From a virus (lineage: Duplodnaviria; Heunggongvirae; Uroviricota; Caudoviricetes), in IMG/VR virus record IMGVR_UViG_2737471821_000005: a stretch of 6,671 nucleotides of DNA; one strand, 5' to 3'. The notes under the pieces are model-generated. The model was not told the origin of the DNA. It saw nothing but the letters and a program-made list of their open reading frames with translations, and did not search any database. This document shows, piece after piece, positions 1,240 through 6,671 of this stretch. A program made the translations under genes and the position numbers. Positions within the stretch are counted from its first letter, which is position 1; every line of letters starts with the position of its first letter.

Positions 1240-1431
1240 TTATCGCGAGTTTTTAGTACAGATTTTTTTTGATTTACTAATAGTTCCATCATTGCAAACG
1301 AACTTTCCATCGGAGGTACAGTGAGAGACACCTCCCTTTTTCCCAGAACAAGGATAATTTTTAGCATAGGTAGTTAGTGGGTTTAATAACAAAGAGCATG
1401 ATAAAACCACAAAAAATACCTTACCAAGCAT
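1240..1431 (-). CDS. Small secreted cysteine-rich cationic protein (hypothetical; 63-aa precursor)
   Basis: ATG at 1431-1429 preceded by GGAGG about 5 nt upstream; it starts 15 bp after the cI stop codon on the same strand. The N-terminus looks like a Sec signal peptide (MLGK + [12 protein letters not shown] + NPLTTYA) with a likely cleavage after TYA. The predicted mature ~40-aa peptide has 4 Cys and a net charge of about +7. No family recognised. Confidence 0.5.
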
Positions 1432-2040: not shown

Positions 2041-2069
2041 TTGACGATTTCACTGTGCGATCGTATGTT
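2041..2069 (+). promoter_or_regulatory. Candidate rightward sigma70 promoter (pR-like lytic promoter): -35 TTGACG, 17-bp spacer, -10 TATGTT
   Basis: TTGACG at 2041-2046 and TATGTT at 2064-2069 with exactly 17 bp between them, in the cI-apl intergenic region and oriented toward apl/cII. Predicted transcription start near 2076, about 66 nt before the apl ATG. Confidence 0.45.
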
Positions 2070-3719: not shown

Positions 3720-3946
3720 TGGCTGATGCAATGGATCTCGTACAGCAGCGCGTTGAAGAAGAACGCCAACGCCATATCCGTGCTGCCCGTGCCAAAACGC
3801 CGGGCGTGTCCCGCGTGCTTTGCGTTGAGTGTGAAGCGCCAATTCCGCCAGCACGCCGCCGTGCCATTCCGGGTGTGCAGCTTTGCATTACCTGTCAGGA
3901 AATCGCAGAGCTGAAAGGCAAACATTACAACGGAGGTGCTGTATGA
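3719..3946 (+). CDS. TraR/DksA-family C4-type zinc-finger protein
   Basis: 75-aa protein with two Cys pairs spaced as in TraR/DksA zinc fingers (CVECEAPIPPARRRAIPGVQLCITCQ). Start and stop overlap the neighbouring genes. Confidence 0.75.
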   Translation: MADAMDLVQQRVEEERQRHIRAARAKTPGVSRVLCVECEAPIPPARRRAIPGVQLCITCQEIAELKGKHYNGGAV

Positions 3947-4797
3947 GCACCATCCTGAAATGGGCAGGAAATAAAACCGCCATAATGTCCGAACTGAAAA
4001 AGCATCTTCCTGCTGGCCCGCGACTGGTTGAACCTTTCGCGGGTTCCTGTGCAGTGATGATGGAGACGGATTACCCCAGCTATCTTGTTGCGGATATTAA
4101 TCCTGATTTAATCAACCTCTATAAAAAGGTTGCTGCTGATTGTGAGTCGTTTATATCTCGTGCCAGAGCTTTATTTGAGGAAGCAAACAGGGAGGTGGCT
4201 TATTACAACATAAGGCAGGAGTTTAATTACTCCACTGAAATTACTGATTTCATGAAAGCGGTATATTTCCTGTATCTCAATCGTCACGGTTACCGTGGTT
4301 TATGTCGCTATAACAAGAGCGGGCATTTCAACATTCCCTACGGTAATTATAAAAATCCGTATTTCCCTGAAAAAGAAATTCGCGCATTTGCAGAGAAAGC
4401 CCAGCGGGCAACGTTTATCTGCGCCAGCTTTGATGAAACGCTGGCGATGTTGAAGGTGGGGGATGTGGTGTATTGCGATCCGCCTTATGACGGTACGTTT
4501 TCCGGCTATCACACTGATGGTTTCACTGAAGATGATCAGTATCACCTGGCATCTATTCTTGAACATCGGTCATCAGAAGGACATCCGGTCATTGTTTCTA
4601 ACAGTAACACGTCTTTGACCCGGTCCCTTTATCGTAATTTCACTCACCACTACATCAGGGCGAAACGCAGCATCGGCGTTGCAGCGGGGGAGGGAAAATT
4701 TGCAACAGAGATGATTGCCACTAAATCTGCTAATTGGTTTAGTGCCGATTTTAGTAGGGGACGTGACTCTACTGTTATTTTCGGGGTGCAAGTGTGA
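3943..4797 (+). CDS. dam: Dam-family DNA adenine-N6 methyltransferase (GATC-specific family)
   Basis: 284-aa protein from ATG 3943 with GGAGGTG upstream. It has the N-terminal AdoMet-binding motif (ILKWAGNK...[10 protein letters not shown]), the catalytic DPPY motif (VYCDPPYDG), and [16 protein letters not shown], all in the order I recall for E. coli Dam. The track ORF's 20-codon 5' extension lacks a ribosome-binding site. Confidence 0.9.
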
Positions 4798-5624
4798 AAG
4801 AAATGCACCACGGAATTCATCATTTCCATGGGACGCCTGTCTGGGGAAGTGCTGGCGACGTTCATCGTATTGCGGTGAGCGGAGCTGGCGCTTTCGTCTC
4901 CTATGTACGACCAGATCAGATTGCGGCGTCCATTCAGCACGCTCAGGTCGTCGGCATTGATAACGGCGCATTTTCTGCATGGGTGCGTGGGCTAAAAATT
5001 AACTGGAGTGATTTTTATAAATGGCTCCTGAACTATTACCACCATCCTAAGGTCGCTTTTTTTGTCATTCCTGATGTTGTGGACGGAGGTGAACGTGACA
5101 ATGATGCCCTGATAAACGAAGTTCCGAAAATGTTCTACGGGAAGGCAACTCCCGTCTGGCATCTGCACGAGTCAATCGAGCGGCTTATCGAGCTATGTCG
5201 TGAATGGCCTCGTGTCTGCTTTGGATCGTCTGGTGAATATGCGGCTATCAGAACTGCGCACTGGCATCGTCGTATGCAGGACGCTTTTGAAGCAATTTAT
5301 TGCCGACACAATTTCAAAACAGCTGTTCATGGTTTGCGCATGCTTGACGGTCGTGTGTTGGGAAATTACCCACTGGCGACTGCCGACAGTACAAATCTTG
5401 CCTGCAATGTCCCCAAATTTAATAGCAAATATCCTGAGCTGACGCGGGCTATTCAGGAGGCTGAGTATTCGCGCAATCTGACGGAAAAGGAGCTGAAAGC
5501 TGTCATTCTGAAAAACCGTTGCGCAATTTTAAAAGGTGCAATTGAAGCTGTTCGCCCACCTTCAGTTTCTGATTGGCTGTCGAATGGTTTGCAGCCTTCA
5601 CAGCTCGAACTGGAGATTGCGTAA
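4794..5624 (+). CDS. TGT-fold protein lacking the zinc subdomain; candidate DpdA-like DNA 7-deazaguanine transglycosylase
   Basis: 276-aa ORF whose GTG start overlaps the dam stop (GTGA), with GGGGTG 5 nt upstream. Motifs appear in TGT order: FHGTPVWG (cf. FMPVGTYG), [10 protein letters not shown] (cf. DSGGFQ, first catalytic Asp), [10 protein letters not shown] (cf. MIFDEC, substrate Asp), CFGSSGEY (cf. GGLAVGE), HGLRMLDG (cf. LMGVG), ATADSTNLA (cf. FDCV, nucleophile Asp). There is no CxCxxC...H zinc cluster. Being a real gene is high confidence; the function is moderate confidence. Confidence 0.55.
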
Positions 5625-5914
5625 TGAGCTACAGCTATTCCTGGAATGCTGAGAAAAAAGCAATCAATCCTTACGTAGAGACAGAAGAGCAATCTTCAGT
5701 TTCTGCGCTTTCAAACCTGATCGCTCTGTACGCTGCCGATAACGAGCAGGAACAGCTGCGCCGCGAGGCACTGAGTGATCAGGTCTGGGAGCGTTATTTC
5801 TTTAATGAATCCCGTGATCCTGTCCAGCGCGAAATGGAGCAGGATAAGCTCATTAGTCGGGCAAAGCTGGCGCATGAGCAGCAGCGTTTTAATCCAGATA
5901 TGGTCATTCTGGCG
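5624..5914 (+). pseudogene. 5' portion (97 codons) of a phage early gene interrupted by IS26; possibly the replication initiator by position
   Basis: ATG at 5624 overlaps the previous stop (TAATG). The reading frame runs straight into the IS26 terminal repeat at 5915, and the remaining 70 codons of the track ORF 5573..6076 are translated IS26 sequence. In P2/186-like phages the gene after the TraR-like region is the replication gene A. Confidence 0.5.
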
Positions 5915-5928
5915 GGCACTGTTGCAAA
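5915..5928. repeat. IS26 terminal inverted repeat (the end nearest the transposase stop codon)
   Basis: Exact GGCACTGTTGCAAA at the element boundary. Confidence 0.85.
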
Positions 5929-5966
5929 GTTAGCGATGAGGCAGCCTTTTGTCTTATTCAAAGGCC

Positions 5967-6671
5967 TTACATTTCAAAAACTCTGCTTACCAGGCGCATT
6001 TCGCCCAGGGGATCACCATAATAAAATGCTGAGGCCTGGCCTTTGCGTAGTGCACGCATCACCTCAATACCTTTGATGGTGGCGTAAGCCGTCTTCATGG
6101 ATTTAAATCCCAGCGTGGCGCCGATTATCCGTTTCAGTTTGCCATGATCGCATTCAATCACGTTGTTCCGGTACTTAATCTGTCGGTGTTCAACGTCAGA
6201 CGGGCACCGGCCTTCGCGTTTGAGCAGAGCAAGCGCGCGACCATAGGCGGGCGCTTTATCCGTGTTGATGAATCGCGGGATCTGCCACTTCTTCACGTTG
6301 TTGAGGATTTTACCCAGAAACCGGTATGCAGCTTTGCTGTTACGACGGGAGGAGAGATAAAAATCGACAGTGCGGCCCCGGCTGTCGACGGCCCGGTACA
6401 GATACGCCCAGCGGCCATTGACCTTCACGTAGGTTTCATCCATGTGCCACGGGCAAAGATCGGAAGGGTTACGCCAGTACCAGCGCAGCCGTTTTTCCAT
6501 TTCAGGCGCATAACGCTGAACCCAGCGGTAAATCGTGGAGTGATCGACATTCACTCCGCGTTCAGCCAGCATCTCCTGCAGCTCACGGTAACTGATGCCG
6601 TATTTGCAGTACCAGCGTACGGCCCACAGAATGATGTCACGCTGAAAATGCCGGCCTTTGAATGGGTTCAT
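5967..6671 (-). CDS. tnp26: IS26 transposase Tnp26 (DDE transposase, IS6 family)
   Basis: 234-aa translation ([39 protein letters not shown]...LVSRVFEM) matches Tnp26 as I recall it. Its ATG is the last three bases of the window (6671-6669). Confidence 0.95.

Follow-up and report, generated by a model that had tools for sequence, protein, structure and literature searches.

A DpdA-like gene in a 186-like prophage

Does the early operon of a 186-like prophage of Escherichia coli encode an enzyme that exchanges guanines in DNA for 7-deazaguanines? The question is raised by a gene in a 6,671-nucleotide stretch of Caudoviricetes DNA (IMG/VR record IMGVR_UViG_2737471821_000005), here referred to as the window, which holds the left end of a 186-like prophage (Peduoviridae, Eganvirus-type) of E. 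coli. An earlier note, made from the letters alone, had proposed that the gene product has the fold of tRNA-guanine transglycosylase (TGT), lacks the zinc subdomain and is a candidate DpdA-like DNA 7-deazaguanine transglycosylase. The six-frame list of open reading frames (ORFs) contains the gene at the length given there:

4794..5624, plus strand: dpdA-like gene, 276 amino acids from a GTG start codon

RefSeq starts the same gene at ATG 4803 (273 amino acids, WP_001420002.1) and labels the product 'hypothetical protein'. The comparisons presented below identify its family, its fold, its conserved residues and its position in the operon. We consider it probable that the gene is a member of the DpdA-only (singleton) clade of gamma-proteobacterial phage DpdAs and, jointly with this, that it encodes a phage DpdA exchanging a small fraction of the guanines in double-stranded DNA for a host-made 7-deazaguanine.

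Sequence relatives

The protein matched PHROG 887, annotated as queuine tRNA-ribosyltransferase, over residues 2-275 (E = 9e-97). A tblastn search yielded matches in 105 phage records, the best of which were the Salmonella phages SEN1 (75.7% identity), SW9 and SI22 (75.5% each); MED16 was 54% identical and phage 7-11 was 34% identical (E = 1e-50), and the more distant matches included, besides 7-11, SPN3UB, SfI, BTP1 and many Vibrio phages. In the RefSeq phage records, the genes of SW9 and SEN1 already bear the name queuine tRNA-ribosyltransferase. For the analysis of conservation we used an alignment of 65 relatives reaching down to about 28% identity. Using hhalign, the profile of these 65 sequences was aligned to the DpdA protein of phage CAjan with 98.5% probability (E = 3e-15) over 157 columns covering residues 47-205, and D56, H123, H179 and D198-S199 were paired with identical residues. 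These matches, together with the named structural matches described below, bear out the DpdA-like identity proposed in the earlier note.

The family is large, with 4,213 relatives at E ≤ 1e-5 in a large protein collection; all of the 120 listed among these matches are called 'hypothetical' and none has a Pfam domain. An exhaustive search of representatives at 50% identity recovered 555 clusters with a common core at residues ~10-207. The dN/dS ratio was 0.076 for a close pair, while synonymous sites were saturated in distant pairs (pS about 0.8, pN about 0.2). The gene is under purifying selection.

Predicted fold

The structure predicted by AlphaFold2 from the family alignment (pLDDT 94, pTM 0.90) is a (beta/alpha)8 barrel of eight alternating strand-helix units, and the nearest solved structures are TGT-family enzymes. 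Structure prediction followed by a Foldseek comparison, as the earlier note had suggested, pointed to the TGT family: the sole PDB matches at E ≤ 1e-3 were Cap10, at the top, and ArcTGT. A search against BFVD gave 33 matches at E ≤ 1e-3, which included DpdA2 of nt-1, and every named one was a phage queuine tRNA-ribosyltransferase.

The first barrel strand begins at residue 9 of the model and the N-terminal lid of TGT is absent, as it is from bacterial DpdA (PMC10164549). The CxCxxC zinc motif was found in 0 of the 65 relatives, among which no Cys column is conserved; the five Cys of the window protein are scattered and do not fall in conserved columns. After the putative nucleophile these relatives have only 30-99 residues, and E. 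coli Tgt carries its CDCYTC motif at residue 302. Bacterial DpdA and the TGTs retain the zinc site (PMC10164549). Bacterial Tgt and ArcTGT have both a tRNA-binding lid and a zinc subdomain, whereas the window protein has neither and is about 100 amino acids shorter. It is a minimal (beta/alpha)8 enzyme of the TGT fold without N-terminal lid or zinc subdomain. The lack of a CxCxxC...H cluster had been noticed from the sequence and is real, but it is not a distinctive feature, being normal for phage DpdA: the motif is also absent from the CAjan, MED16, SfI and SI22 proteins. Cap10 likewise has no zinc site (10.1101/2025.04.06.647259).

The bacterial DpdA of S. Montevideo (PDB 7UI4) is 413 amino acids long and has a large four-helix insertion, Ins8, that is held in place by a zinc site of the form CxCx2Cx22H. 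It requires DpdB as well as ATP, after which DpdC makes ADG (PMC10164549), and none of these partners is present in the window. The gene is not part of a bacterial dpdA-K cluster, in that its product matched none of the models and lacks the Ins8 zinc motif, and its neighbours are dam and gene A. Cap10 of type IV CBASS (PDB 9NTN) belongs to a defence operon and, together with the QueC-like Cap9, acts on the N-terminus of a CD-NTase. Its likeness to the window protein is in fold only, with 11% sequence identity; no Cap9 or CD-NTase genes were found in the window or in the homologous loci, and PADLOC gave no match. Cap10-like deazaguanylation of a protein was rejected as the leading explanation because these partners are missing and the lead of Cap10 over DpdA in the structural comparison was only 0.8 Z units.

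Conserved residues

The residues D56, A59, D94, H123, H179, D198 and S199 are invariant in all 65 sequences. They include an Asp in each of the three motifs that had been picked out, in this order, from the sequence of the window gene. The conserved segments are as follows:

4953..4973, plus strand: GIDNGAF motif (residues 54-60) at the C-terminus of strand beta3; paired with LDSGAFS in CAjan DpdA
5064..5087, plus strand: VIPDVVDG motif (residues 91-98), following strand beta4
5160..5162, plus strand: H123 (in PVWHLHES), where strand beta5 ends; aligned to the His of PCFHFGED in CAjan DpdA
5328..5330, plus strand: H179, in VHGLRM, in strand beta7; aligned to the His of KLHAFG in CAjan DpdA
5379..5393, plus strand: motif TADST, residues 196-200, in strand beta8; aligned to CDSS of CAjan DpdA

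In the AlphaFold2 model, the end of beta3 carries D56, D94 follows beta4, H123 and H179 lie in beta5 and beta7, and D198 is at the end of beta8, so that the invariant residues are predicted to sit where TGT and bacterial DpdA have their catalytic residues. By analogy with the roles described for bacterial DpdA (PMC10164549), D56, which is aligned to an Asp in CAjan DpdA, would be the general acid/base, equivalent to Asp95 of the bacterial enzyme and to the Asp of LTDSGGF in Tgt. D198, also aligned to an Asp of the CAjan protein, would be the catalytic nucleophile, equivalent to Asp256 and to the Asp of MFDCV in Tgt. The putative base-recognition residue is D94, corresponding to Asp130 and to the Asp of MIFDEC in Tgt; within its motif P93, I96 and G98 are at least 90% conserved and D97 is variable. 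H123 is the likely partner of the base-recognition Asp, equivalent to His181, and the spacing of 75 residues from H123 to D198 is the same as from H181 to D256 in bacterial DpdA. H179 may be the hydrogen-bond partner of the nucleophile, as H226 is for D248 in Cap10 (10.1101/2025.04.06.647259). We regard as effectively refuted the explanation that the protein is a generic TIM-barrel enzyme with a coincidental likeness of its motifs to TGT and DpdA, for which the failure of TGT profiles to match (see below) might be cited; the nearest structures, the named matches and the placement of the invariant residues all point to the TGT/DpdA family.

DpdA-only relatives and proposed function

Genes for preQ0 synthesis (FolE, QueD, QueE and QueC) and for an amidotransferase are absent from the window, as the earlier note had observed, and from 17.9 kb around an intact copy, a scope that ends short of the late region of the prophage; the gene is thereby of the DpdA-only type. 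Hutinet et al. (2019; PMC6884629) included SEN1 (then classed P2virus), SfI, SPN3UB, BTP1 and 7-11 in their Supplementary Data 1, with SEN1 entered as having DpdA only and no preQ0 synthesis genes. They proposed that DpdA-only phages draw on host preQ0, which is the same reliance on the host pathway as had been suggested for the window gene. In the paper on the Pantoea phage MED16, the branch of the MED16 DpdA has SW9 gp39 and SEN1 gp38 as its only viral members. The earlier note knew of no such enzyme in the early operons of P2/186-like phages; with SEN1 and SW9 placed in the literature and annotated in RefSeq, a P2/186-like DpdA has already been described and is not new.

The DpdA-only proteins of SEN1, SW9 and SI22 (Eganvirus, 186-like), MED16 and 7-11 are of the same family and length as the window protein and lack the zinc motif. 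The homologue occupies the same slot, directly upstream of the replication gene A, in SI22 as well as in prophages of Salmonella and Klebsiella. The window allele differs from those of SEN1, SW9 and SI22 in that it comes from E. coli, follows dam rather than a DUF5405 gene and resides in a prophage disrupted by IS26. For the 186-like DpdA-only members, modification is known only from relatives outside this group: MED16 DNA contains dADG on 0.13% of G with traces of dPreQ0 (MED16 paper), and the DNA of phage 7-11 contains dADG on about 0.02% of G (PMC6884629).

The DpdA1 proteins of the Queuovirinae phages CAjan and 9g have a homologous core, are also free of zinc and insert preQ0 into DNA after replication. 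Deletion of dpdA in CAjan abolished dPreQ0 in the phage DNA, and dpdA of 9g alone in E. coli led to the insertion of dPreQ0 into plasmid DNA (PMC6884629). The latter result makes a supply of preQ0 from E. coli plausible. CAjan DpdA1 is only about 22% identical to the window protein; CAjan has its own FolE, QueD, QueE and QueC plus a preQ0 transporter and modifies about 32% of its G, whereas the window has none of these genes.

By analogy with these systems we infer the DNA substrate, the inserted base, its density and sequence context, and the benefit to the phage. The gene would be expressed from the early lytic operon of 186 type together with dam and the replication protein, and its product would exchange bases in double-stranded phage DNA after replication and at low density. 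The incoming base would be preQ0 from the host queuosine pathway or a close derivative, ending as dPreQ0 and/or dADG. In the proposed double displacement, D198 would attack C1' to give an intermediate in which enzyme and DNA are covalently joined, with D56 as general acid/base, D94 or D97 together with H123 reading the base, and H179 orienting the nucleophile. The phage may be shielded from some nuclease-based defences, or the benefit may be a sparse epigenetic mark.

Several observations weigh against this reading. The Pfam TGT family PF01702 did not match the protein even at E ≤ 1, and no relevant match was obtained in Pfam, NCBIfam or PADLOC, including the models of bacterial DpdA, so the profile searches that the earlier note had suggested as a check came back empty. 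Searches of the PDB sequences with phmmer and with the 65-sequence profile recovered no TGT or DpdA, only noise such as GCN4 coiled coils, and the hhalign comparison of the family profile with E. coli Tgt, a single sequence rather than a TGT family profile, gave a probability of 0.3%. The equivalences with residues of 7UI4 are based on strand position and spacing rather than on a superposition of coordinates. In the hhalign alignment the invariant D94 is placed opposite a Ser of CAjan DpdA, which has an Asp three residues on, at the variable position 97; the alignment may be off by one helical turn, or the active sites of DpdA-only proteins and the pathway-linked DpdA1 may truly differ. The evidence from dADG in the DNA of MED16 and 7-11 is correlative, the base being very sparse, and in MED16 the modification was without effect on the restriction enzymes tested (MED16 paper). 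We found no direct assay of any DpdA-only enzyme in the literature, and a search from 2024 on yielded none for an enzyme from a P2/186-like phage. With the prophage of the window disrupted by IS26, the enzyme may never meet replicating phage DNA in this host. Finally, MED16 and 7-11 are without a known enzyme for the conversion of preQ0 to ADG (DpdC), and the identity of the inserted base is therefore uncertain.

The discrepancy at D94 and the unexplained dADG in DpdA-only phages leave room for a different base specificity. It is conceivable, though we would not bet on it, that the zinc-less DpdA-only clade marked by IPD(94) is not a bulk preQ0 insertase but inserts ADG, the QueC intermediate, or another host 7-deazaguanine at a few specific sites per genome. 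Direct insertion of ADG would explain the dADG in MED16 and 7-11 without DpdC. If so, the mark would serve as a sparse epigenetic signal, placed for instance at sites of replication or packaging, or used to evade one specific defence, and not as a general camouflage against restriction.

An alternative is that the protein is a true enzyme of the TGT/DpdA fold that has diverged to a substrate other than DNA or to another reaction, the candidates being guanine exchange in tRNA, a Cap10-like transfer of 7-deazaguanine involving protein, and excision of the base without re-insertion. Hutinet et al. found the DpdA-only proteins in separate clusters and noted that they may have diverged functionally, and mycobacteriophage Orion, which is also DpdA-only, was without any modification (PMC6884629). 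The top structural match, the likewise zinc-free Cap10, and the tiny levels of modification in the relatives are also in line with a diverged function, while the dADG and traces of dPreQ0 in the DNA of MED16 point to a DNA substrate. Taken together, we judge these possibilities rather unlikely. Exchange of DNA guanines by a phage DpdA is the reading that we prefer, and genomic support for a 7-deazaguanine substrate from another phage is given below.

Operon structure

On the minus strand the window encodes an integrase, a small ORF and the CI repressor. The early operon on the plus strand reads apl/cox, cII, fil, DUF5347, DUF2732, a DksA/TraR zinc finger gene, dam, the dpdA-like gene and gene A, a 186-like gene order that agrees with the prophage early operon recognized in the earlier note. 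Two further elements of the operon are:

3943..4797, plus strand: dam, Dam-family N6-adenine DNA methyltransferase, immediately upstream of the dpdA-like gene (PF02086, E = 2e-76; TIGR00571, E = 5e-95)
2041..2069, plus strand: candidate promoter for early lytic transcription, a sigma-70-like site (9/12 consensus match) located upstream of apl/cox

The GTG start of the dpdA-like gene overlaps the stop codon of dam (GTGA) and its stop codon overlaps the start of gene A (TAATG). Owing to the latter overlap, the gene is translationally coupled and belongs to the early operon as an integral member. Judged by its position, the candidate promoter would drive an operon that includes dam and dpdA; promoter-like sites in the region were not enriched over shuffled sequences. 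A weak hairpin followed by a T-run is located at 4752-4774 on the plus strand, within the 3' end of dam and 20 nucleotides before the dpdA start. An internal terminator between dam and dpdA was rejected, since terminator-like sites were below chance (3 found versus 4.3 expected).

Distribution and genomic contexts

The gene is present in 107 of 5,426 complete E. coli genomes, nearly always at least 99% identical and in the arrangement with dam and gene A. Prophages beside rcdA/ybjJ in 78 complete E. coli genomes match the segment 1-5915 at 99.8% identity or more. The identification as DpdA corrects a 'hypothetical' label in about 100 complete E. coli genomes and draws attention to roughly 2% of E. 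coli strains, whose prophage might introduce 7-deazaguanines into DNA. For questions about the base, the sites and the role of DpdA-only enzymes, and for testing sensitivity to defences against deazaguanine DNA, a temperate 186-like coliphage that has one dpdA gene, in a host with the full genetics of queuosine, would be a convenient system. The main value is in a corrected annotation and a tractable E. coli system; no new kind of system is revealed.

The Dam methyltransferase next to the gene had been taken as a neighbour that fits the DpdA family. The neighbour is confirmed, but dam is no hallmark of DpdA: Salmonella prophages and phage SI22 have DUF5405 in its place upstream of the homologue, while the homologous locus of a Klebsiella prophage has dam. 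The methyltransferase gene is a facultative neighbour of dpdA and not an obligate partner, and an obligatory Dam-DpdA functional pair was rejected on the grounds of the Salmonella homologues without dam at this position and of the different contexts elsewhere. DNA methyltransferases nonetheless recur near homologues. On the metagenome contig ERR2586124_127936 (4096-8251) a 61%-identical homologue is located between rdgC and a gene for an 808-amino-acid fusion of C5-cytosine and Dam-type methyltransferases, a further DpdA beside a DNA methyltransferase outside the P2-like phages. One Logan contig encodes a 421-amino-acid protein in which residues 1-192 of Dam are fused in frame to residues 48-276 of DpdA; it is 99% identical to the window genes, is without the first two barrel strands of DpdA, and is either a deletion variant or an assembly artefact.

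In Flyfo siphovirus Tbat1_6 (NC_071143, 3525-4783), a 61%-identical homologue directly follows a gene for a YhhQ-like transporter of the Vut_1 family (PF02592); this transporter and the putative preQ0 transporter of CAjan are homologues (27% identity, E = 7e-7). YhhQ, the preQ0 transporter of E. coli, is a member of the same Pfam family. The transporter beside the homologue provides independent genomic support for a 7-deazaguanine substrate. The two genes have the appearance of an 'import plus insert' module without synthesis genes.

Shorter homologues (~250 amino acids), ~39-43% identical over residues 10-206, occur in the lambdoid phages SfI, BTP1 and SPN3UB and in an Stx1a phage. The SfI homologue, at 3995-4747, is located in the early-left region just after exo/bet, and a DksA-like zinc-finger gene follows a few genes further on. 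The presence of homologues in both lambdoid and 186-like phages suggests that the DpdA-only gene moves between types of temperate phages as an accessory of the early region.

Disruption of the prophage by IS26

Downstream of the dpdA-like gene the operon is interrupted:

5624..5915, plus strand: 5' remnant (about 97 codons) of gene A, replication endonuclease, cut by IS26; the intact homologue in E. coli D9 has 790 amino acids
5916..6671, minus strand: partial IS26, inside which the window ends; transposase on the minus strand (PF13610 DDE_Tnp_IS240, E = 2e-48)

The megablast identity to intact prophages ends at 5915, and a terminal inverted repeat, GGCACTGTTGCAAA, which we take to be that of IS26, starts at 5916. 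The transposase is named 'IS6-like element IS26 family transposase', and the ORF at 5573-6076 is a chimeric read-through from gene A into IS26. The junction between IS26 and gene A was found in none of the 5,426 complete E. coli genomes, and the insertion looks like a recent, local and strain-specific event. Since gene A is truncated, the prophage in the window is probably defective and unable to replicate; the dpdA ORF itself is intact.

These observations bear on the explanation that the gene is an inactive passenger in the dead prophage of this genome, with gene A destroyed and the early operon repressed by CI. The truncation of gene A after about 97 codons by the inverted repeat at 5916 and the recent and local look of the junction fit with this. 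The ORF is however intact, and about 100 genomes in which gene A is whole carry copies that are 99.9% identical to it, and the explanation concerns activity in one host rather than the identity of the protein. We consider it improbable as an account of the gene.

A small ORF between the integrase and cI

The small ORF between int and cI (1240-1431, minus strand) encodes 63 amino acids and lies in a stretch of low GC content (about 35-37%). The product has an N-terminus resembling a signal peptide and four Cys, and it matched PHROG 6000 (function unknown, E = 5e-34) and no Pfam family. From these sequence features it looks like a secreted moron product, possibly expressed in the lysogen.

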